DNA of 64,000 nucleotides. Source: Candidatus Kaiserbacteria bacterium CG10_big_fil_rev_8_21_14_0_10_47_16 (GTDB lineage Bacteria; Patescibacteriota; Minisyncoccia; Phycocordibacterales; UBA918). The notes beneath the pieces are model-generated. The model made no database searches, was not told where the DNA came from, and worked only from the letters and a program-made list of their open reading frames with translations. Both the position numbers and the translations under genes were made by a program. Location of the stretch: contig PFBI01000006.1 of the NCBI GenBank assembly GCA_002773395.1, positions 12,049 through 76,048 of the forward strand, read 5' to 3'. Of this stretch, positions 5,816 through 31,059 are shown piece by piece (the stretch's first letter is position 1; each line of letters begins with the position of its first letter).

Positions 5816-8800
5816 TTACGCTGTGAGAAGTGCTGCGAGGCGCTCTTTGTTGATTACCATCCAACCGTTTTCAGTTGGGAACATTGCCTTTGCCTTCGTG
5901 ATCACATGATCAAGCATGGTAAGACGTTGTTCAAGTGGTGCATCCTGATCAGCGACGTAACTGAGTGCGTCGGCTGAAAGAAGTACACGTGATGCATGTG
6001 CTCGATTTTCAATTGTCGATGCAGCATCCGCTACTTCTTCTTGCACCATTACCGGTGCTCCGGTAATCGGTTCTACTGCTGCAATCGGAAGATTAAACGG
6101 AATACTTGAGTCGGCCGTCACTTCAGAAGCAACCGTTGATGTGGCGACAGGGGTTGGAATATGCTGCGCTGCAGATACTCCTTTCCCTGCTGTTGCAAAA
6201 CGTCCTTTCTTCACTACGAAGAAGTATGCGATACCGACTCCCCATAGAGCGAGGAGTGCATAGAATACTGAGGTAAGGAATGGTCCTGCATCGAATCCTG
6301 TGTATGGCACACGTACGAGCTGTACGCCGGCCACGAGTGGATCCTGTGTTCGAACGGTTGTAACAACAACATTGTTATCATCATCAACACGTACCTCTAC
6401 ACGACAGGTGTCAGTGTCACCTTTCTTTCCGTACGCAGTAAGCGTATATTCAGTATCTTCGTCTGGTCGGACAGAAATACTGTCACGTTCAGGATCTTCG
6501 TTGTCTCCATTGTCGGTATCAACGAGAGTCTTTCCATGATCGTCACGAAGACGGATGTCCTCAGTGTCGTCATTGTCCCAACTGAGCGTAATACGATCGC
6601 CGTCGTTAATACGATCATCAGAGACTTCGAGATCACATCGTACGTTACCAGAATCCTTTACATTAACTGATGTTGAACAAGTCACGCTATCAGTATTGTT
6701 TGAAGCGGTAAGGCGGTATGTCTTATTGTCGTACGCGTAGAGTGTTACGGATCCATCTTGAGCAACGAGTCCAAGACCGTTGTCAATAGAAACGCGCGTT
6801 GCATCAGTTGTGTTCCATCGGAGTTCAAAGGAATCTCCCTCATCAACACTTGAAGGTGTTGCTGTAAAGTAATCACATGAGAGATTACTTTGCGGTGGGG
6901 TATCCTGCACGTTTACCGATGTTGAACACGTTACGGTATTCGTATTATTTGATGCAGTGAGTACGTATGTCTTACTGGCAGTACCGGTAAGGGTAACTGA
7001 ACCGTCAGCTGCAACGAGTCCAATACCATTGTTGATTGATACAGAGTTTGCATCAGTTGTGTTCCAGATAAGTTGGAATTGATTACCCTGTTGTACAGTC
7101 GATGGTGATGTGTAGAACTGGTCACAACTGAGTGAACTTTGTGGTGGCGTATTCTTAATCTTTACTGATGTTGAACATGATACCGTTCCCGTACTATTGG
7201 TTGCAGTAAGGGTGTAGGTCGTATCGTGATTTACTGCAAGAGATACTGATCCGTCCTGTGGGACGAGTCCTGTTCCTTGGTTGATTGAAACTTGCGTTGC
7301 GCCGGTTGTATTCCATGAAAGTTGGAATGCCTCACCTGCTTCAACGAAGCTTGGACTTGCTTGGAAGAAATCACATGAGAGTGGATTTTCAACTGGAATA
7401 TCTTGCACCTTTACGCTTGTTGTACATGAAACAATGCTTGACGCATTTGAGGCAGTAAGTACAAACGAGGTGTTCTTGGTTACGGTAAGCGCGATAGAAC
7501 CGTCCTTAGGAACAAGTCCAACACCGTTGTTAACAGTCACCTGTGTTGCCCCAGTTGTACCCCACGTAAGTTGGAAGGCTTCGCCAGAACCAACAGTACC
7601 AGGATTCGCTTGGAAGAAGTCACATGAAATCGGATTTTCCTCTGGGATGTCCTGTACTTTTATATTCGTCACACATGACACAATACTCGAACTGTTTGAA
7701 GCGGTGAGTACGAACGATGTATCGTTCGTCACGGTAAGAGCGATTGATCCATCTTGTGGCACAAGTCCGACACCATTATTGATGTTTACTTGTGTTGCAC
7801 CAGTCGTCCCCCACGTAAGTTGGAAGGCTTCGCCTTTCTTTACGATATTTGGATTCGCCTGAAAGAAATCACAAGAAATCGGTTCGTCTACAACTACCGT
7901 TTCAACTTTCACATTTGTCGTACATGACACGATGCTTGAGCTGTTTGACGCAGTGAGTACAAATGAAGTGTCTTGATTGACGGTAAGTGCAACCGATCCG
8001 TCCTGTGGTACAAGACCGATACCATTATTAATGGTTACCTGTGTACCACCAGTTGTACCCCACGTAAGTTGGAATGCCTCACCTTTCTTTACAATACTCG
8101 GGTTTGCTTGGAAGAAGTCACACGAGAGTGGGTTCTCGACAGGAATGTCTTGTACGTGCACGGTCGATGTACACGATACGATACTCGAAGCATTAGATGC
8201 GGTAAGCACGTACGTTTTGTCAGCTTGCACGGTAAGTGCAACCGATCCATCTGCTGGTACAAGACCAACACCGTTGTTGATGTTTACCTGTGTCGCTCCG
8301 GTCGTTGCCCACGTAAGTTGGAATGCTTCACCCTTTCCTACTGTTGAAGGATTCGCTTGGAAGAAATCACATGAGAGTGGATTTTCCTCTGGAATATCTT
8401 CTACATGTACCGTTGTCGTACACGACACAATACTTGAAGCATTTGATGCCGTAAGGATAAATGACTTATCAGCTTGCACTGAAAGTGCCACCGATCCGTT
8501 TTTCGGTACAAGACCAACACCGTTATTGATGTTTACCTGCGTCGCTCCGGTTGTTGCCCACGTAAGTTGGAATGCCTCACCTTTGCCTACAGTGCTTGGG
8601 TTTGCTTGGAAGAAGTCACATGAAAGTGGAGTTTCTACAGGAATATCCTGCACCTTCACATTTGTGGCACACGAAACCGTTCCCGTGCTATTCGATGCGG
8701 TAAGGATAAAGGACGTATCTTGATTTACAGAAAGCGCTGCCGAACCATTCTTTGGAACGAGGCCTACGCCGTTATTGATTGATACTGTGGTAGCACCTGT

Positions 8801-9673
8801 TGTGCCCCATGTAAGTTGAAATGCTTCACCTTTCTTCACGATACTTGGACTTGCTTGGAAGAAGTCACATGAAAGTGGTGTTTGCTGTGGTGGCTGTTGG
8901 TTTACATTGATCTGTACCGTACACGTATCACTGCCTCCTTGTCCGTATGCAGTAAGGGTGTATGACTGTGAGTGATCAACGTATACGCTACTTGAACCGT
9001 TCTTTGGAACAAGTCCGAGTCCTGGATTAATAGATACTGAAGTTGCGTATGAAGTTCCCCATGTAAGTGTTACGTTTGCGCCGCCAGCGGGAACTGTTGT
9101 GTTACTTGCAGTAAAGAAGTCACAGTATGCGGGCTGTGGAGTGTAGTGGTAGTCGTTGTAGTACGTGTAGTCGTAATAGGTGTAGTCGTTGTATGTGTAG
9201 TAGTCGTAGTAATCGTAATAGTCGTAGTTGTAGTATTGGTAGTCGGTGTAGTAGTAGTCGGTGTAACCGTAGTCGTATGAATAGTCGTTGTACCCGTAAT
9301 CATACGAGTAATCGTTATACCCGTAATCGTAGGAATAATCATCGTAGCCACCACAGCCATAACAGCTGTCGCCACCGACGTACCCGCCATTTCCATAATT
9401 ATACGAGTAGTCGTTATACCCGTAATCATACGAATAGTCGTTGTACCCGTAGTCGTATGAGTAGTCATAGTATCCTCCACAGCTGTAACAGCTGTCGCCA
9501 CCGACGTAGCCACCCCCATAGTCATAGGAATAGTCATCGTAGTATTGAGCCTCTGCTGTTGCAGGGACGAGCGTAAGATCATCAGTGATCTGTGATACTG
9601 AGACAAGACCAAACGCAAAAACAGCAGTCGCGAAGACTCCCGTAAGGATTGAGATTTTAATAATAGTGTTCAT
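5816..9673 (-). CDS. giant cell-surface repeat protein: signal peptide, Tyr/Asp/Gly-rich low-complexity region, eleven ~83-aa Cys-bracketed Ig-like tandem repeats, VPYTG motif + TM helix + KKGR, then a ~130-aa C-terminal tail
   Basis: The ORF is open from 9829, but the real start is probably MNTIIKISILTGVFATAVFAFGLVSV (ATG at 9673), since the Tat-protein terminator lies upstream. The repeat consensus is PLSCDFFQANPS.V.KGEAFQLTW.TTGATQV.INNGVGLVP.DGS.AL.V..D.SF.LTASN.SSIVSC.T.V.V.DIP.EN. Confidence 0.85.
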   Translation of the reverse strand: MNTIIKISILTGVFATAVFAFGLVSVSQITDDLTLVPATAEAQYYDDYSYDYGGGYVGGDSCYSCGGYYDYSYDYGYNDYSYDYGYNDYSYNYGNGGYVGGDSCYGCGGYDDYSYDYGYNDYSYDYGYNDYSYDYGYTDYYYTDYQYYNYDYYDYYDYYTYNDYTYYDYTYYNDYHYTPQPAYCDFFTASNTTVPAGGANVTLTWGTSYATSVSINPGLGLVPKNGSSSVYVDHSQSYTLTAYGQGGSDTCTVQINVNQQPPQQTPLSCDFFQASPSIVKKGEAFQLTWGTTGATTVSINNGVGLVPKNGSAALSVNQDTSFILTASNSTGTVSCATNVKVQDIPVETPLSCDFFQANPSTVGKGEAFQLTWATTGATQVNINNGVGLVPKNGSVALSVQADKSFILTASNASSIVSCTTTVHVEDIPEENPLSCDFFQANPSTVGKGEAFQLTWATTGATQVNINNGVGLVPADGSVALTVQADKTYVLTASNASSIVSCTSTVHVQDIPVENPLSCDFFQANPSIVKKGEAFQLTWGTTGGTQVTINNGIGLVPQDGSVALTVNQDTSFVLTASNSSSIVSCTTNVKVETVVVDEPISCDFFQANPNIVKKGEAFQLTWGTTGATQVNINNGVGLVPQDGSIALTVTNDTSFVLTASNSSSIVSCVTNIKVQDIPEENPISCDFFQANPGTVGSGEAFQLTWGTTGATQVTVNNGVGLVPKDGSIALTVTKNTSFVLTASNASSIVSCTTSVKVQDIPVENPLSCDFFQASPSFVEAGEAFQLSWNTTGATQVSINQGTGLVPQDGSVSLAVNHDTTYTLTATNSTGTVSCSTSVKIKNTPPQSSLSCDQFYTSPSTVQQGNQFQLIWNTTDANSVSINNGIGLVAADGSVTLTGTASKTYVLTASNNTNTVTCSTSVNVQDTPPQSNLSCDYFTATPSSVDEGDSFELRWNTTDATRVSIDNGLGLVAQDGSVTLYAYDNKTYRLTASNNTDSVTCSTSVNVKDSGNVRCDLEVSDDRINDGDRITLSWDNDDTEDIRLRDDHGKTLVDTDNGDNEDPERDSISVRPDEDTEYTLTAYGKKGDTDTCRVEVRVDDDNNVVVTTVRTQDPLVAGVQLVRVPYTGFDAGPFLTSVFYALLALWGVGIAYFFVVKKGRFATAGKGVSAAQHIPTPVATSTVASEVTADSSIPFNLPIAAVEPITGAPVMVQEEVADAASTIENRAHASRVLLSADALSYVADQDAPLEQRLTMLDHVITKAKAMFPTENGWMVINKERLAALLTA
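6335..9124 (-). repeat. tandem array of ~249-bp coding repeats (eleven 83-aa domains); the central units are near-identical at the DNA level
   Basis: Repeats 3-7 encode almost identical peptides. The antisense and alternate-frame ORFs at 7281-7862, 7977-8723 and 7973-8347 show the same periodicity. Confidence 0.85.
9125..9544 (-). repeat. low-complexity coding DNA for a Tyr/Asp/Gly/Ser/Asn-rich segment (YDYSYDYGYNDYSY units, with an internal ~45-aa duplication containing CxxC pairs)
   Basis: Translation reads YYDDYSYDYGGGYVGGDSCYSCGGYYDYSYDYGYNDYSYDYGYNDYSY... The alternate-frame ORFs at 9070-9618(-) and 9127-9576(+) are composition artefacts. Confidence 0.8.
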
Positions 9674-9784
9674 AGAATAATTAATATAACGATTAGTACT
9701 ACACTGGATGACGACTATCATGCCAGATGATGAAGGTGAATCGAGTTCACCGCCAACATCAATAATGATGTAAGAAAATAGGTT

Positions 9785-9822
9785 TCTGGTGGCGCGATGC
9801 TTTCGCAACGCGCCACCAGTTA
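9785..9822 (-). terminator. intrinsic terminator after the Tat-signal gene (stem tggtggcgcg/cgcgccacca, then a T-rich run on the minus strand)
   Basis: 10-bp perfect stem, followed on the minus strand by tattttctt. It separates the three-gene cassette from the giant gene. Confidence 0.55.
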
Positions 9823-9825
9823 CCT

Positions 9826-10335
9826 TCAACAGGCATCTCCCTTGCTCGGTTCACACCGACATGGGAGAGGAGCGCCGTAGCGCGCAAAGGACCAATTGCC
9901 ACACACGAGTGGCTTTATGATCCGGTATTGAACACCCGTCTCATCGTTGACGTACCAGACGGCAGCGATGCGGGAAGCCTTGGACTTCCATTTCGACGGC
10001 ATTGCTACCGTTTCCTTGGCGACCCAATGCTTTTTGCGAGTGAAGACCATGGTGCCTACTGGGTCACCGTCACGTAGTTCATACGTGTCGTGACCCTTGG
10101 GATGGTGGGCGACTGCTGCAGATATGCGCGGACGCATATCTGCAGGGATACCCGCCAATTCCATGGCTTGGTCGAGGGTTCCCTTGAAAGGGTTCCCTCC
10201 ACCATTTGTCCAGAGGAAGGTGCCCTTGTCGAGGGTACCTACCCCCGCATGGTCATCTGCGGCAAACGCAAACCTTGGGAGGAATGCAACTGCCGCGATG
10301 CCAGCGAGAAGCTGACGTCGAGTTGGTTGCATCAC
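9826..10335 (-). CDS. secreted protein with a twin-arginine (Tat) signal peptide and C-terminal 4-Cys cluster; function unknown
   Basis: MMQPTRRQLLAGIAAVAFLPRFAFA-ADD, with RRxLL and an AxA cleavage site. SD AGGAAAGGAAAGG upstream. Local GC about 57%. Confidence 0.6.
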   Translation of the reverse strand: MMQPTRRQLLAGIAAVAFLPRFAFAADDHAGVGTLDKGTFLWTNGGGNPFKGTLDQAMELAGIPADMRPRISAAVAHHPKGHDTYELRDGDPVGTMVFTRKKHWVAKETVAMPSKWKSKASRIAAVWYVNDETGVQYRIIKPLVCGNWSFARYGAPLPCRCEPSKGDAC

Positions 10336-11258
10336 CTTTCCTTTCCTGCGTTACCGGGAACGATGGCAACAACCAAAACCGGATCTCTCTGGTTTCGGCC
10401 GCCGCCGTTCTTCACGTAGTTGTAGATGCTATCCGTGCACATAACACGTGCCTCGGCAGCCTTCTTCTGGTGCGCGATGATGTCCCAAGGGACTTGCACG
10501 CAGAGCAAGGTTTCGGAATCGATGCGCGAAGCGTCGATCTCGATCACCTCGTGCCCCTGGTTGTTACCCTTGTAGATTACGTCCTTATCCTCGCCGTTTC
10601 GGGTGAGGAAGAGGGTGACAGGTGCATTCACTACGCGAACGTCACCAGTGTTGGTGCCGTCGCGCAGATCAGGGCCGTATTCGTCAGCATTACGGTCGCC
10701 GACAATGCGGTCGACGGTCGGTGTCTGCCGAGGCAAAAATGCCCCTACAAAAGCCGACCCTTCGAGTGAGTTGCGGTCGGAGTTTGCACCGGATGGTACG
10801 AAATCCTGACGATCGTCGCTTTCGTAGTCATCACGGTAGGAGGCCGGACGAATGTCCGAACCCGACCGTCTAACGGCGACTGTGCGGCGTTCAACCTGAA
10901 CGCCGCTACCGGCACCGTAGTAGCCGGACCGCTGCTGACGACCGTAGTTTTGGCCACGGTCATAGCGTCGTTCGGTCACGATGCCGTTTTGGCTGAGAAC
11001 AGCCTGACGACACCATTCACGGGGATTACCCCGCGAGCGGTCACGTCGAGCGCGATACTCACAGTCCTCGATGGCTCGCGCCATCTGGGGAGTGATCTGT
11101 ATCGAGTCACCTTCACGGTGGTAGCCGCCGGATTCAGCACGCATCTCGCGATGCATACCTCCTCCGGAACGAATAGGTTCGTACTCGGAACTCACCTGAG
11201 TACCAGCACACGCCGTGAGCAACAGTGCGCCCACGGCCAGAATCGTTACTTTTAACAT
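10332..11258 (-). CDS. lipoprotein (lipobox LLTAC) with an R/Y/G/D-rich N-terminal region; function unknown
   Basis: MLKVTILAVGALLLTAC signal II. SD AAGGAGAAG 5 nt upstream. 4-nt overlap with the downstream gene. Confidence 0.6.
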   Translation of the reverse strand: MLKVTILAVGALLLTACAGTQVSSEYEPIRSGGGMHREMRAESGGYHREGDSIQITPQMARAIEDCEYRARRDRSRGNPREWCRQAVLSQNGIVTERRYDRGQNYGRQQRSGYYGAGSGVQVERRTVAVRRSGSDIRPASYRDDYESDDRQDFVPSGANSDRNSLEGSAFVGAFLPRQTPTVDRIVGDRNADEYGPDLRDGTNTGDVRVVNAPVTLFLTRNGEDKDVIYKGNNQGHEVIEIDASRIDSETLLCVQVPWDIIAHQKKAAEARVMCTDSIYNYVKNGGGRNQRDPVLVVAIVPGNAGKER

Positions 11259-11279
11259 GGATCTTCTCCTTGAAGTTGA

Positions 11280-11825
11280 TCAGCGCCGCGGGCGCGGCTG
11301 ATGTTGCTGTTGCGGGCGCGGCTGAGGCCGTCGCTGTTGCTGCCGCCGATATTGAGGCGGTGGCGGTTGGATACGATAGTATTGTTGCTGCCGATACTGT
11401 TGGCCTCCGCCGTAGCGTTGACCATTCCCGTATTGACCGCCACCATAACCTTGTTGACCGTAACCGTACTGACCACCGCCGTAACGACGTTGACCATAAC
11501 CCTGTTGGCCGCCATGGTGGCGACCTTGGGATATTTGTCGGCCAATTCGCATCTTACAATCGTACAAGATGTCATCAAACGCTGGATGAGCATGGTGTGC
11601 GCCCTGCGTTCTTTCGTCAACGCACTGCCACACCATTGCTCTTCCGCCATCTGGATGACCTCGGCCTCGAGATTGGTTGCTGCATCCACCGAGGACGCAA
11701 GCAAACAACCACATACCACGATCGATGAGGTATATTTCTCCTCGATCAAGCTCAGCCTTTGCGGGTTGGGCTACACTCGCCATCGCAATGAAAGCGACGA
11801 CGCAGAACGCAAATAGTCGCTTCAT
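11280..11825 (-). CDS. secreted protein with a Gly/Gln/Tyr/Arg/Pro-rich low-complexity C-terminus
   Basis: Signal peptide MKRLFAFCVVAFIAMASVAQPAKA. C-terminus GYGQRRYGGGQYGYGQQGYGGGQYGNGQRYGGGQQYRQQQYY...PQYRRQQQRRPQPRPQQ. SD AAGGAG 8 nt upstream. Confidence 0.6.
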   Translation of the reverse strand: MKRLFAFCVVAFIAMASVAQPAKAELDRGEIYLIDRGMWLFACVLGGCSNQSRGRGHPDGGRAMVWQCVDERTQGAHHAHPAFDDILYDCKMRIGRQISQGRHHGGQQGYGQRRYGGGQYGYGQQGYGGGQYGNGQRYGGGQQYRQQQYYRIQPPPPQYRRQQQRRPQPRPQQQHQPRPRR

Positions 11826-12158
11826 TACTTAGGCTCCTTTTTCCTGTTGAAGCCGTGTCTTGCACGGCATTGTTAAAGTTCACCTCCCGTCGCACAAAAA
11901 ATCATGCGTGGAGCTCTTTGTTTAGAATAATTTTGTATAACACAATACAAAACACACGCTCTATTCTAAAAAAAGAGCTACCTACATGTACATTTTCCCC
12001 ACCACAGAGAACAATTTGATTAGGGTAATTCTACACCAAACTATTGTATATGTCAAGTATTTGTCTCTCTTTTCTTTCTGTGAGCACTCTTAAAATACAG
12101 CTTAATATAAGCCTATAAATAGTATATTGTTATTGAAAATCTAGACAATCCTGCGGAA

Positions 12159-13127
12159 TTATCGCAAAAGATCCATGATGAGATGATGAACAAGCTCTCT
12201 GTGTGAGGCTCCGACAGCGGTCATTGCCTTCGGGAAAAGTGATTCTTCAGTGAGTCCTGGCAGTGTATTTACTTCGAGAAAATAAATTCCATCATCGGCA
12301 ATCATAAAATCTGATCGAGAGTATTGCGCGAGATCAAGTGTTTCGTGGACGAGTCGTGCAATACGTTCCATCTCTTTCTTTTCGGTATGAGTAAATCGTC
12401 CCGGACACACTTCTTCTGTCTCCCCTGTGTATTTCACATCTGCAGAAAAGAAATCTGATTTTTGTGGTGGAATAATTTCAATTGCAGGAAGTGCGTACAA
12501 CTCTTCACCGCGAAAACGATTGAGTACTCCGCATGTCGCTTCTTTTCCAACAATTCTTTTTTCTACGAGAACTTGATCATAAATATTAAGAGCATCGCTG
12601 AGTGCACTTGCAAGGAGTGTTGGATTTTTTACCATCATGGTTCCAACGGATGATCCTGATGAAATTGGTTTAATAACGTACTCAGGACCAAACATGTCGG
12701 CAATACTTTCGCTCAGTCCATGCAAATTTCGTTTCGAGTCTCGCGTTACTACCATGTGTGGAGGCATCTTGAGTCCAAAATCACGTAAGTGATCCTTGGT
12801 AAGTACTTTATTCATTGCAATGCTTGATGCGTAGGAACGACTTCCAGTGAACGGGACGCCCGCGCGCTCGAGAATACGTTGTAGCTTGCCGTCTTCACCG
12901 AATGCGCCGTGGAGAGCGATAAAGACGGCGTCGACACTTTGGAGGATTTGCTCAGGATATCGTGAGACACCACGATGCAACCACTCACCTGTCTTGGTGA
13001 TGGTTATATCAAGTGGTTCAAAGAGATCTCGGCTAAGCGAGGCCAGTACTGCATCACCAGTTTTCATTGAAACTTCGTATTCTTCACTGGGGCCTCCGCG
13101 GAGTACCGCAACGCGTATCTTACTCAT
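12159..13127 (-). CDS. ddl: D-alanine--D-alanine ligase
   Basis: IRVAVLRGGPSEEYEVS...ALHGAFGEDGKLQRILERAGVPFTGS...; ATP-grasp fold, 322 aa. Confidence 0.9.
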   Translation of the reverse strand: MSKIRVAVLRGGPSEEYEVSMKTGDAVLASLSRDLFEPLDITITKTGEWLHRGVSRYPEQILQSVDAVFIALHGAFGEDGKLQRILERAGVPFTGSRSYASSIAMNKVLTKDHLRDFGLKMPPHMVVTRDSKRNLHGLSESIADMFGPEYVIKPISSGSSVGTMMVKNPTLLASALSDALNIYDQVLVEKRIVGKEATCGVLNRFRGEELYALPAIEIIPPQKSDFFSADVKYTGETEEVCPGRFTHTEKKEMERIARLVHETLDLAQYSRSDFMIADDGIYFLEVNTLPGLTEESLFPKAMTAVGASHRELVHHLIMDLLR

Positions 13128-13186: not shown

Positions 13187-13228
13187 TAGGTTAGTCAGAC
13201 TAACCTAGATTAGACTAACCTAGATTAC
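13187..13228. repeat. 22-bp perfect palindrome (ctaggttagtc|gactaacctag) fused to a tandem 15-bp direct repeat (gactaacctagatta x2)
   Basis: Read directly from the sequence. It lies immediately 3' of the uvrC stop and upstream of ddl. Confidence 0.6.
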
Positions 13229-14451
13229 GGGAGTTTGCGTTTTGAGCGGTGGTAACCGATGGCGAAGCGGTGTGCCTCGGCGTTTACGAGCAAAATAGCA
13301 TCGTGGTAGGTGTCGATAATAGAACGCGGGCCGATAATACGCTTTGGATTATGTTTTTCATCTTTTACGACGCCGACGACAGGAATGAGTACATCGTATT
13401 TACGAAGAACGTGCTCCGCAGCGTTTTTTTGTGCAGTGCTCCCATCAACTACAATAATACTTGGATACTGCCATTCGGGATGCGCGAGTCTCCGTTCAAG
13501 TACCTCGCGGAGTGCAGCAGGATCATTGGAACCATGTACGGTATTTATTTTAAACTTCCGATATTCTGATTTCTGCGGTTGCAAGCCCTCACTCACTGTC
13601 ATAACGCCCACCATATTCTTGCCACTTAAGTGCGCGACGTCATACCCTTCGATACGTGCAGTCTTCTCATCACGATACACGCGGACGTCATCCTTAATGA
13701 GCGCAACATCCTGAATATGTTGCAGAGCAAATATTTTCCTCTTTACAAGGTTAGCATCTTCAAATTTCTCAGCCTTTGCAAGCGTCTTCATCTCTTTCTC
13801 AAGTTCAGTAATGATTTGTTTCTTCTTTCCTTCAAAGAAAAGCTTGATGTGCCGTATCGTTTTCTGGTATTCCTTCTTGGATTGAACGCTTGGATAGAGT
13901 CCAATTTGGCGGTTAAAATCCACTTTTCCTCGAGCCATCTTGCCCTTCTCTGTCCCTATCGGCTTGTCCGTGTCGTAGAATTGAAATATCTTTCTGACGA
14001 TTTTTAGCGCTTCACGAAAGAGCATTCCACTTGGGAATGGGCCGAAGTGGTATTTAATTTCTTTTTTCGCGAATTCTTGCGTGAGATCCTTTCCTCGTAC
14101 GACGAGTACACGTGGAAACTCTTCATCAGTGATGACAAGATGGTTGAAACTCTTATCGTCTTTTGAAATGGTATTGTATTTTGGCTTATGTGTACGAATG
14201 AGGTTGGTTTCGAGAATAAGTGCTTCAAGTACTGAGTCCGTCACAGTGGCATCAACCGTCTTTGCTTCCTCAACCATTTTTTCAATAATCTCACTCCGCT
14301 TCTCCCGAATATCATGGGTAAAGTAGCTTCGAACGCGGTTTTTTAACGAGGTTGCTTTCCCGATATATAAAATTTCCTTGCGTTTTCCAAGGAAGAAATA
14401 GACACCAGGGGCGTCTAGAAGCTTTTTCTGGGGGATATCCTCTTTTTTCAT
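13225..14451 (-). CDS. uvrC: excinuclease ABC subunit C, short form (GIY-YIG + EndoV-like nuclease, no C-terminal HhH2)
   Basis: The GIY-YIG motif is PGVYFFLGKRKEILYIGKATSLKNRVRSYF. C-terminal ...VVDGSTAQKNAAEHVL...LLVNAEAHRFAIGYHRSKR. Confidence 0.8.
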   Translation of the reverse strand: MKKEDIPQKKLLDAPGVYFFLGKRKEILYIGKATSLKNRVRSYFTHDIREKRSEIIEKMVEEAKTVDATVTDSVLEALILETNLIRTHKPKYNTISKDDKSFNHLVITDEEFPRVLVVRGKDLTQEFAKKEIKYHFGPFPSGMLFREALKIVRKIFQFYDTDKPIGTEKGKMARGKVDFNRQIGLYPSVQSKKEYQKTIRHIKLFFEGKKKQIITELEKEMKTLAKAEKFEDANLVKRKIFALQHIQDVALIKDDVRVYRDEKTARIEGYDVAHLSGKNMVGVMTVSEGLQPQKSEYRKFKINTVHGSNDPAALREVLERRLAHPEWQYPSIIVVDGSTAQKNAAEHVLRKYDVLIPVVGVVKDEKHNPKRIIGPRSIIDTYHDAILLVNAEAHRFAIGYHRSKRKLP

Positions 14452-19922: not shown

Positions 19923-20417
19923 ATGCAAATAACGTTGCCCCAGCTACTTGTATCTGTTGCGGCGAAAATGGAGCGCGAAGTTTCAGCAATGAAGCAGCGT
20001 AAAACGAGTCCTGAAGAACGAAGAGAGATTCTCAAGTCTTTTCAAAAGACCATGTTCATTTCAGACAGCGATATCGAAGAAGTGATTGTCTATCTACAGA
20101 CAGTGGAGACCGGCGGTAGTTTCATTGAAAACGATGCACTCCCCCTTCTCAATGAAATTGTAAATGAAGGGAGAAAGCTTCTGAACGAATATCAAGAAAA
20201 GTACGATAGCATTGAATCAGAAATTTCAAAAATTCACTTTCTTTCAGAGACAGAGAAAAAAACGCGAGCTCTTGCCCGTACACTCCCTCTCGTCAGGGAT
20301 ATTAATAGGCAGCTCATGGCAAAGCTCGTTTACATTGGAGTATTGCCTGATGATGCCCGAAAAATCATCAGCGCCTTGTATGATGAAAGGATAGAAAAAG
20401 CCGGCAGTCTCTCGTAA
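19923..20417 (+). CDS. hypothetical protein (164 aa, predicted helical)
   Basis: Strong SD AAGGAGG 6 nt upstream. Terminator downstream. No recognisable motif. Confidence 0.5.
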   Translation: MQITLPQLLVSVAAKMEREVSAMKQRKTSPEERREILKSFQKTMFISDSDIEEVIVYLQTVETGGSFIENDALPLLNEIVNEGRKLLNEYQEKYDSIESEISKIHFLSETEKKTRALARTLPLVRDINRQLMAKLVYIGVLPDDARKIISALYDERIEKAGSLS

Positions 20418-30986: not shown

Positions 30987-31059
30987 GAGCGATTAGCTCA
31001 GCTGGTAGAGCGCTACATTGACATTGTAGAGGTCACAGGTTCAAGTCCTGTATCGCTCA
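30987..31059 (+). tRNA. tRNA-Val (anticodon GAC)
   Basis: Manual cloverleaf: acceptor GAGCGAT/ATCGCTC, D-arm GCTCAGCTGGTAGAGC, anticodon stem CTACA/TGTAG with loop TTGACAT, T-arm ACAGGTTCAAGTCCTGT, discriminator A. Confidence 0.85.

Follow-up and report, generated by a model that had tools for sequence, protein, structure and literature searches.

A GC-rich cassette of exported-protein genes beside a giant surface-protein gene in a Kaiserbacteria genome: probably one allele of a variable accessory-gene slot

Introduction

Sortase and pilus clusters of Gram-positive bacteria are the closest described counterparts of the locus treated here, a cassette of three open reading frames (ORF1, ORF2, and ORF3) located upstream of the gene for a giant surface protein in a 64,000-nucleotide stretch of DNA from Candidatus Kaiserbacteria bacterium CG10_big_fil_rev_8_21_14_0_10_47_16 (GenBank assembly GCA_002773395.1, contig PFBI01000006.1, positions 12,049 to 76,048 of the forward strand), which is designated the window in the following. 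In the Gram-positive clusters, a sortase gene adjoins the gene of a large substrate with an LPXTG-like motif, a transmembrane (TM) segment, and basic residues, and the cluster additionally encodes small exported accessory proteins. Loci of the type studied here have the same arrangement, with VPYTG as the sorting motif in the window, and also encode small exported proteins. A further common trait is the combination of a Cys-rich substrate with Cys-rich accessory proteins, which implies oxidative folding and fits the link between oxidative folding and sortases (MdbA and VKOR in Actinomyces) that is described in PMC6744442; the same paper presents sortases as common in bacteria of the Candidate Phyla Radiation (CPR). 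The locus differs from the Gram-positive clusters in that ORF1 to ORF3 contain neither a sorting signal nor a pilin motif, the secondary structure of ORF3 is beta-rich and not that of a thioredoxin-type fold, the TM segment of the substrate is followed by a long conserved, presumably cytoplasmic tail, and the window has no sortase gene nearby; the accessory position, moreover, is hypervariable and deviates in composition.

Host recognition and attachment of CPR bacteria (Patescibacteria), almost none of which can be cultured, are little understood, and the locus offers a concrete candidate in the form of a giant sortase-anchored fibre with hypervariable small exported partners. Our analysis indicates that the cassette is probably a self-contained exported-protein operon and one allele of an accessory-gene slot that varies between lineages and is linked to the giant surface protein. 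Such an operon would comprise a promoter-like site, a structured leader of about 200 nucleotides (nt), three genes led by Shine-Dalgarno (SD) sites, and a terminal hairpin. In a Parcubacteria/Paceibacteria-like clade, the slot would be positioned between the sortase gene and the surface-protein gene and be filled with unrelated Cys-containing exported proteins; no published description of it was found in the accessible portions of the literature on CPR and Parcubacteria sortases. The partner genes are recognisable by sequence, namely by slot position, an excess of G+C at third codon positions (GC3), and strong SD sites in otherwise SD-poor genomes, and determinants of host specificity could thereby be searched for in thousands of metagenome-assembled genomes.

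Organization of the locus

The genes of the locus are, in this order, uvrB, uvrA, uvrC, ddl, the cassette, and the gene of the giant surface protein, with thrS located downstream in convergent orientation. All three cassette ORFs were found on the minus strand where the original prediction had placed them, ORF3 being counted from its ATG codon. The features of the locus are:

12028 to 12056, minus strand: candidate sigma-70-like promoter (TTGACA, 17 nt, TAGAAT; 11 of 12 consensus positions matched), based on the consensus match only
11826 to 12027, minus strand: 5' leader of about 200 nt, folding energy -58.9 kcal/mol
11280 to 11825, minus strand: ORF1, 181 amino acids (aa), with SD site AAGGAG, ATG start, and a Sec-type signal peptide; variable cassette member
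10332 to 11258, minus strand: ORF2, 308 aa, lipoprotein with the lipobox ...GALLLTAC; GC3 z = 8.0
9826 to 10332, minus strand: ORF3, 168 aa from the ATG, with a twin-arginine-type signal and a beta-rich domain; apparently coupled to ORF2
9786 to 9819, minus strand: GC-rich hairpin directly 3' of the ORF3 stop codon, -34 kcal/mol with the extended stem
9674 to 9785, minus strand: non-coding spacer from the hairpin to the start of the surface-protein gene, with two small hairpins
5816 to 9673, minus strand: giant surface protein, 1285 aa, as translated; sorting motif, TM segment, and tail conserved

The promoter candidate lies downstream of the ddl stop codon at 12159. The terminal hairpin of the original prediction is real, with a stem at 9786–9819, and was missed by a simple terminator scan because the T-run begins about 6 nt past the core stem, just outside the extended stem. 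This hairpin marks the 3' boundary of the cassette and probably serves as a terminator or as an RNA-stabilising element.

The hypothetical protein GW943_00160 of Candidatus Parcubacteria bacterium GCA_009991995.1 has the same sequence as ORF3, and the locus with identical ORFs is also present in three metagenomes from JGI (3300025018, 3300008255, and 3300004210) and in one Logan assembly. An assembly chimera as the source of the GC-rich block was ruled out because the cassette junctions are identical across these five independent assemblies. Public annotations of these records (loci L007–L011) conflict at window positions 11252–11825 and 10332–11258: the NCBI record and one JGI record show an alternative-frame ORF of 165 aa in place of ORF1, whereas one JGI record and the Logan record show an antisense ORF of 167 aa and an ORF2 shortened to 270 aa. 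A likewise spurious antisense gene of 362 aa is annotated in the related locus L092, and the high GC content evidently gives rise to such long spurious ORFs. A non-coding or antisense-gene reading of the cassette was rejected, as conservation, export signals, and a confident predicted fold favour the frames given above.

Base composition and Shine-Dalgarno sites

The GC content amounts to 0.564–0.584 across positions 10001–11500 (500-nt segments), compared to 0.467 for the whole window and 0.39–0.49 for the neighbouring segments. The raised block was thus described correctly in the original prediction, except for the upper figure of 65%, which overstates the GC content found here. As a control for amino-acid composition, synonymous codons were resampled from the window's own codon usage. 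GC3 was 0.619 against an expected 0.418 for ORF2 (z = 8.0) and 0.577 against 0.455 for ORF3 (z = 3.5), whereas the value of 0.483 against 0.429 for ORF1 (z = 1.4) is not significant, its high GC content being due to a G/Q/R/P-rich amino-acid composition. Amino-acid composition alone can therefore account for the GC excess of ORF1 only, and under this control the deviation of ORF2 and ORF3 persists while that of ORF1 does not.

The SD sequence AAGGAG is located 8 nt ahead of the ATG of ORF1 and 7 nt ahead of that of ORF2. The start of ORF3 is preceded by the purine-rich sequence GGAAAGGAAAGG, which contains a GGAAAGG tract, and its ATG overlaps the stop codon of ORF2 (TGATG), suggesting that ORF3 is translationally coupled to ORF2. 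SD-like pairing is missing from most other ORFs of the window, even if any start within the first approximately 50 codons is allowed, so that the contrast in SD use between cassette and surroundings stands as predicted. The clearest SD-bearing exceptions outside the cassette are thrS (3948) and a 164-aa ORF at 19923–20417 (AAAGGAGG). The genome thus seems to rely mainly on SD-independent initiation.

Relatives carrying the ORF2/ORF3 pair

A word-based search yielded only two other ORF3 proteins, with 68% (locus L006) and 60% identity, and for ORF2 only already known loci and L099. The ORF3-like protein of L001 is 58–62% identical to ORF3. The 2-kb contig L001 encodes a G/Y/Q/R/P-rich lipoprotein, an ORF2-like lipoprotein, and an ORF3-like protein with a twin-arginine (RR) signal, after which come a hairpin and the first part of a Y/D-rich surface-protein gene; its cassette has a GC content of 0.55–0.65, which drops to 0.45 beyond. 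On the 1-kb contig L006, only the ORF2–ORF3 pair is visible.

A profile search with ORF3, which covered 1.84 billion cluster representatives, found 63 proteins, mostly of 160–180 aa, with an RR- or Sec-type signal and four conserved Cys residues (VCGNW...C-x-C...C). In each of the five closer relatives that were checked, an ORF2-like gene is adjacent, directly upstream of the gene for a large protein whose C-terminal part is homologous to that of the surface protein of the window, and a sixth locus with this layout, L099, was found via ORF2. In the loci concerned (L092/L093, L094, L095, L096/L097, L098, and L099), a sortase gene and a gene for a TM protein of about 350 aa are in most cases situated just upstream. 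The link to the neighbouring adhesin-like gene that had been suggested originally is thus borne out, in that the pair directly precedes a homologous surface-protein gene wherever the context is visible; such pairs recur in at least eight other Parcubacteria-like lineages. The ORF2 and ORF3 genes share an overlap in the window, L006, and L098, are directly contiguous in L007 and L092, and are separated by 2–13 nt in L001, L094, and L099; the pairwise identities of ORF2 and ORF3 co-vary between loci. In L099, a ParE/Phd toxin-antitoxin pair (6033–6669) adjoins the module of the approximately 350-aa TM protein, sortase, slot, and surface protein.

Every ORF2/ORF3 cassette is GC-rich relative to its own flanks, for example:

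L092: cassette GC 0.61–0.68 (GC3 0.76–0.84), flank GC 0.45–0.49
L094: cassette GC 0.62, flank GC 0.43–0.54
L099: cassette GC 0.61–0.63 (GC3 0.68–0.76), flank GC about 0.49

The identity at 4-fold degenerate sites between the window and L092, L096, and L098 is 0.08–0.40, with a chance expectation of 0.27–0.39, compared to 0.44–0.51 between the window and L001 and L006. As these sites are saturated and all copies are nevertheless GC3-rich, one old transfer with a fading signature does not explain the GC excess; the excess would either be maintained, or the genes would be repeatedly renewed from a GC-rich source. Relatives that have retained the cassette genes have also retained their non-native composition, and a native-like composition at this position was not encountered among them.

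These data bear on the explanation closest to the original prediction, that is, a recent horizontal island from an SD- and Tat-using donor of approximately 58–60% GC, with three genes that are not yet ameliorated and only incidentally linked to the adhesin. Composition and SD use do look foreign, the cassette has its own promoter-like site and hairpin, and the GTDB species representatives closest to this genome (identities of about 60% for Ddl and 63–76% for UvrC) keep uvrC-ddl but have no cassette after ddl. These relatives are uninformative on an insertion because the surface-protein gene is missing there, too. The cassette is shared by L001 (58–62% ORF3 identity) and L006 (68%), in L001 at the same position, with the surface-protein gene and with high GC. 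At least six further, more distant lineages, in which synonymous sites are saturated, have the pair ahead of homologous surface-protein genes. The searches gave no close homologue in a donor. Classical genomic islands also have deviant GC and codon usage, their own regulatory signals, and a patchy distribution among relatives, but they differ from the cassette in several ways. No tRNA target, repeats, or mobility genes were seen: the cassette borders contain no tRNA gene, the nearest ones being located at 30987 and 53988, a repeat scan of the borders revealed no direct repeats, and no recombinase-like, integrase, or mobility gene was noticed in the ORF lists of the window, for which no search with recombinase hidden Markov models (HMMs) was made. 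Furthermore, the position beside the partner gene is kept across deeply diverged lineages, and the deviation outlasts synonymous saturation. We therefore consider a recent island highly improbable, as synteny has largely refuted it already. What remains of the horizontal acquisition proposed originally is the foreign-looking content and the turnover of the locus, not an insertion into this genome with a fading donor GC.

The slot between sortase and surface-protein genes

When metagenomes were scanned for the sorting motif and tail of the surface protein, 220 loci came up, and 80 of these (L100–L179) were retrieved. Homologues of ORF2 and ORF3 are missing from all 80, even at E <= 10. A sortase gene is located upstream on the same strand in 42 of them, and the gap between its end and the start of the surface-protein gene is bimodal, measuring <=300 bp in 16 and 0.7–4.5 kb in 26 of the 42. 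The long gaps hold one or two other small genes, whose products have signal peptides or lipoboxes and several Cys residues (for example, L108 3631–4574, L120 7911–8477, L159 1744–2226, and L110 3731–4623). The slot genes belong to at least 19 mutually unrelated families, most of them led by strong SD sites, and the five families other than ORF2 and ORF3 that were tested have no Pfam domain. They occur in mosaic combinations, such as F4 with F1 and F2 or with F11, F6 alone or with F0, and F0 alone, with F3, or with F12.

For statistics, 34 slot genes from 23 distinct loci were compared with the long genes of each locus as background. GC3 of the slot genes exceeds the background mean in 34 of 34 cases and the background maximum in 33 of 34, with a mean excess of 0.114 in GC and 0.215 in GC3 (Wilcoxon p = 1e-10), and lies mostly at about 0.54–0.76 across host GC3 values of 0.23–0.55. 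The SD pairing energy averages -7.9 kcal/mol for slot genes and -0.4 kcal/mol for the background (p = 5e-7), the background starts being those of the longest ORF, which may understate SD use there; the check with alternative starts in the window agreed with the result. In 848 kb of loci, 11 ORFs combine an export signal with a strong SD site and a GC3 excess of more than 0.15; nine of them lie in the slot, and the two others look spurious. Since the slot genes are consistently GC-rich with respect to their own genomes, the high GC content is a standing property of slot genes and not the mark of one recent insertion in the window.

Two general causes of this composition were considered and set aside. 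A general property of exported proteins was rejected, as the surface protein, the approximately 350-aa TM protein, and the sortase are not encoded by GC-rich genes, and the confinement of the anomalous genes to the slot weakens this explanation further. GC-biased gene conversion at a recombination hot spot is unlikely because the putative homology arms, i.e., the sortase gene and the 5' end of the surface-protein gene, are not GC-enriched.

We think that cassettes may be exchanged laterally from a GC-rich pool, and it is the mosaic content of the slot that favours such an exchange. A serious rival is vertical inheritance, in which selection in place keeps GC-rich codons and strong SD sites, for instance in favour of highly stable, structured mRNAs whose translation is SD-dependent and tightly regulated or coupled, and the differences in content result from loss and divergence. 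It would account for a GC3 that stays high despite saturated 4-fold sites and clusters at about 0.65–0.75 whatever the host GC3, as an absolute optimum would give, and it agrees with the conserved boundary elements (promoter and leader upstream, strong hairpin downstream), with the order of thrS, surface-protein gene, cassette, and sortase gene kept across lineages, and with the lack of mobility genes or donors among the findings. However, at least 19 unrelated families in mosaic combinations are poorly explained by loss and divergence alone, and the surface-protein and sortase genes, exported or co-located as they are, show no such bias. To our knowledge, there is no precedent for selection holding a few genes about 20 points above genomic GC3. 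For these reasons, we regard inheritance under selection as unlikely, yet worth serious attention. Either way, a few genes lying some 20 points above genomic GC3 across synonymous-saturated lineages pose an evolutionary puzzle, which bears on amelioration, lateral exchange, and SD-independent translation in reduced genomes. It may be that GC-rich, structured mRNAs cannot be served by SD-independent initiation and require strong SD sites for translation to begin.

A more specific form of lateral exchange is suggested by integron arrays and hypervariable islets beside adhesin genes. The slot shares with them a fixed chromosomal position, an upstream promoter, short promoter-less unrelated genes in mosaic combinations with each block ending in a hairpin, and a content compositionally unlike that of the host genome. 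It differs by the lack of visible attI or attC core sites and of flanking repeats, by holding one to three genes whose products are all exported, and by a shift that is always towards high GC whatever the host. The terminal hairpins lack RYYYAAC/GTTRRRY cores by eye, and the gene tables contain no integrase-like gene. As a tentative possibility, the slot could be filled by a non-integron type of cassette exchange from a foreign, SD-dependent pool of about 60% GC, and the products could dock on the adhesin and set host specificity. The pool might derive from host bacteria or phages, and ORF1 to ORF3 would then constitute one specificity cassette.

The cassette proteins

The export signals of the original prediction (a Sec-type signal, the lipobox LLTAC, and TRRQLL...AFA) and the four C-terminal Cys residues of ORF3 are recognised by reading of the sequences. 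No match for ORF1, ORF2, or ORF3 was obtained with Pfam, NCBIfam, PHROGs, or PADLOC, which agrees with the earlier statement that they contain no recognisable domain.

The signal peptide of ORF1 reads MKRLFAFCVVAFIAMASVAQPAKA. Next come a small region that contains Cys and a basic tail, rich in G, Y, Q, R, and P, whose net charge is +14. The frame given here carries the SD site and the signal peptide, and it aligns with the L001 counterpart, a 159-aa lipoprotein of like composition, with a score of 74, compared to at most 59 for other frame pairs.

In ORF2, the lipobox is followed by a low-complexity linker, which is variable, and then by a conserved domain of about 140 aa at the C-terminus, with the motifs QTPxxD, LCV, IAHQ, MC, and GxGR...VxAI. 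The domain is kept in eight loci, and its invariant columns include Q14, D19, C89, and C110. The lipobox pattern [LVI][ASTVI][GAS]C is matched by ORF2; comparable sites are present in L001, L092, L095, L096, L098, and L099 and absent in L094.

The signal of ORF3 reads TRRQLLAGIAAVAFLPRFAFA and, as a pattern, fits an S/T-R-R-x-F-L-K-like motif followed by a hydrophobic region and an AxA site. A crude motif and TM scan of the 64-kb window revealed no candidate for TatA or TatC, but Tat export of ORF3 is plausible, as TatA and TatC have been reported in Paceibacteria (PMC9166423). Conserved features of the protein are W41, G45, M95, W115, VCGNW, and a C-terminal C-x-C...C; two of the four C-terminal Cys residues are invariant, and two are present in at least 90% of 24 homologues. 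An AlphaFold2 model based on the alignment of 24 sequences reached a pLDDT of 88.6. Foldseek found no structural match for this model in the PDB (best TM score 0.24) and one marginal, unnamed match in BFVD (E 8.6e-4, TM score 0.38). Profile searches of ORF2 and ORF3 against PDB sequences gave an LptE-like lipoprotein as the best hit, which is not significant (E = 0.11). ORF2 and ORF3 add two new protein families, for one of which there is a confident AlphaFold2 model that Foldseek does not match to any solved structure. A scan of IMG/VR for ORF3 found nothing.

Among described families, ORF3 may be distantly related to the N-terminal domain of the MHFG family of PEP-CTERM proteins (NF038119). 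The model is matched weakly by 18 of the 63 proteins of the ORF3 profile search; the match of one of these (P0019) spans model positions 6–111, corresponding to the N-terminal domain and to the part homologous with ORF3. ORF3 has M95-V-F-T at the position where the family has MHFG, with only the Met invariant in the ORF3 family. In contrast to the MHFG family, ORF3 ends in ...CRCEPSKGDAC, has neither a PEP motif nor a TM segment, carries a twin-arginine signal, and occurs in sortase and not in exosortase contexts. ORF3 itself does not match the model at E <= 1, and its relatives score 17–36 bits against a cutoff of 100. No papers on the MHFG family were found. Six of the 63 proteins carry LysM and four carry PEP-CTERM, and these fusions in distant ORF3 relatives agree with a role at the cell envelope. 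In locus L180 (3657–4403), a distant ORF3 relative with a PEP-CTERM tail (P0025) is located among small ORFs near ERF and YqaJ in a phage-like early region.

These distant relatives, together with the composition of the slot, raise the question of capture from GC-richer, SD-using, Tat- and lipoprotein-competent host bacteria by each episymbiont lineage, the captured genes serving host recognition or mimicry from the slot beside the adhesin gene, in which case the composition would reflect that of the hosts. Composition, SD sites, lipobox, and twin-arginine signals look foreign in the SD-poor genomes of 35–53% GC, the slot content is highly variable, and the distant ORF3 relatives are PEP-CTERM and LysM proteins typical of non-CPR bacteria, one of them in the phage-like region mentioned. 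CPR bacteria are episymbionts with DNA-uptake machinery. ComEC and type IV pili are noted in PMC5220378. On the other hand, the closest ORF3 relatives (E < 1e-16) with a checked context all reside in CPR-type sortase/adhesin loci, relatives in contexts not of the CPR type are far more remote (E 1e-4 to 1e-10), and ORF2 has no relatives outside these loci, so that we consider capture from hosts improbable.

The giant surface protein and the proposed role of the cassette

The surface protein begins with an N-terminal signal or anchor, which is followed by a low-complexity region that is acidic, Y/D-rich, and contains CxxC. About 13 Ig-like repeats in tandem, bounded by Cys residues, come next, and then the motif VPYTGFDAGP (residue 1122, nt 6296–6310), a TM segment, KKGR, and a conserved tail. 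It is probably an adhesin. Motif, TM segment, and tail are conserved in L092, L095, L096, and L099, the motif taking the form (V/I)P(Y/Q)TGF(D/E)AGP. The conserved tail after the TM segment comprises about 130–300 aa (ENRAH..RVLLSSDAL...YPSEDGWVV.N.ER) and is presumably cytoplasmic. Sorting signals are not usually followed by a conserved domain of such length, and the architecture is present in at least 220 metagenome loci. The sortase gene (PF04203) is located directly upstream in L092, L094, L095, L098, and L099 and in 42 other loci; the contig of L096 begins at the cassette, and the overlapping L097 begins inside a sortase-like ORF. The convergent gene downstream is thrS in both the window and L099; in L096, a related gene for a class II aminoacyl-tRNA synthetase occupies this place.

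ORF1 to ORF3 would act outside the membrane together with the giant sortase substrate. The conserved core would consist of the membrane-tethered lipoprotein ORF2 and the secreted, beta-rich four-Cys protein ORF3, whose genes are always adjacent; most likely, the two form a complex at the cell surface, which may help to assemble, fold, dock, or decorate the adhesin-like fibre. In the window, the N-terminal region of the surface protein has a net charge of -25 and the tail of ORF1 one of +14, and L001 shows the same pairing of a G/Y/Q/R/P-rich lipoprotein with a Y/D-rich surface protein. The basic G/Y/Q/R tail of ORF1 may accordingly bind the acidic Y/D-rich distal end of the surface protein of this lineage.

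Besides the possible understatement of SD use in the background, several observations weigh against an accessory-gene operon tied to the surface protein and renewed by lateral exchange. The link of ORF1 to ORF3 with the surface protein is deduced from gene neighbourhood, and in 16 of the 42 loci the directly adjacent sortase and surface-protein genes indicate that the giant protein does not strictly depend on slot genes. No sortase gene was detected by tblastn in the 64-kb window, so that the module is separated here from its usual partner. The likeness of ORF1 to its L001 counterpart is compositional only. Of the 24 aligned ORF3 homologues, about 17 carry an RR motif, six or seven lack it, and one further sequence is truncated at the N-terminus; Tat export is therefore not obligatory for the family. 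The sortase tree, on which ORF2/ORF3-type loci are scattered among other slot types, is a rough neighbour-joining tree without support values. As to a donor, none of the 1.84 billion cluster representatives yielded a close homologue outside CPR-type contexts (five contexts checked), tblastn of ORF3 against phages and plasmids gave no match, and neither a recombinase, for which no HMM search was made, nor flanking repeats were sighted at the cassette. With these points taken into account, an operon that is one allele of a variable slot is still the reading we hold to be probable.

Leader, hairpins, and spacer

The hairpin predicted originally in the leader is real. It consists of 27-nt arms at 11962–11988 and 11903–11929, which are 81% complementary, followed by ATTTTTT, and the hairpin with its T-run lies about 70 nt ahead of ORF1. 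It looks like a transcription attenuator or else like a distant terminator of ddl. After this hairpin, a block (TGCGACGGGAGG) is conserved with L001 and is followed by a small hairpin just before the SD site, the 3' 70 nt of the leader being alignable with L001. The stem of the small hairpin is kept with other bases, GCCGTG/CACGGC in the window versus GCTGCAC/GTGCAGC in L001. A search of positions 9000–13000, which include the leader, against Rfam gave nothing at the gathering threshold and sub-threshold noise only.

The stem of the terminal hairpin at 9786–9819 is identical in L001, and an equivalent hairpin of -21 to -27 kcal/mol is located 3' of the last cassette gene in L092, L094, L095, L096, L098, and L099. 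The sequences of these hairpins are unrelated between lineages. Positions 9560–9860 of the window align with positions 1660–2013 of L001 at a mean column identity of 79%, a block which includes the end of ORF3 and the start of the surface-protein gene besides the spacer, compared to only 58–62% identity for the ORF3 protein. The surface-protein gene is not preceded by an SD site, and a scan of the minus strand of the spacer detected no promoter-like site. The spacer (9674–9785) may be a regulatory or processing element of the surface-protein mRNA.

Further observations

Outside the cassette, a 229-aa ORF at 1876–2565, located beside an OMP decarboxylase-like gene, has a GC content of 0.52 and a GC3 z value of 3.3. 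It has neither an SD site nor a signal peptide, looks phosphoribosyltransferase-like by eye, and does not belong to the cassette phenomenon. An ORF of the window that was first taken for EF-Tu is TsaD instead. UvrC (13225–14451) comprises only 408 aa, with the GIY-YIG and the UvrC RNase H-like domains, and its relatives have 404–447 aa, compared to about 600 aa for a typical bacterial UvrC.

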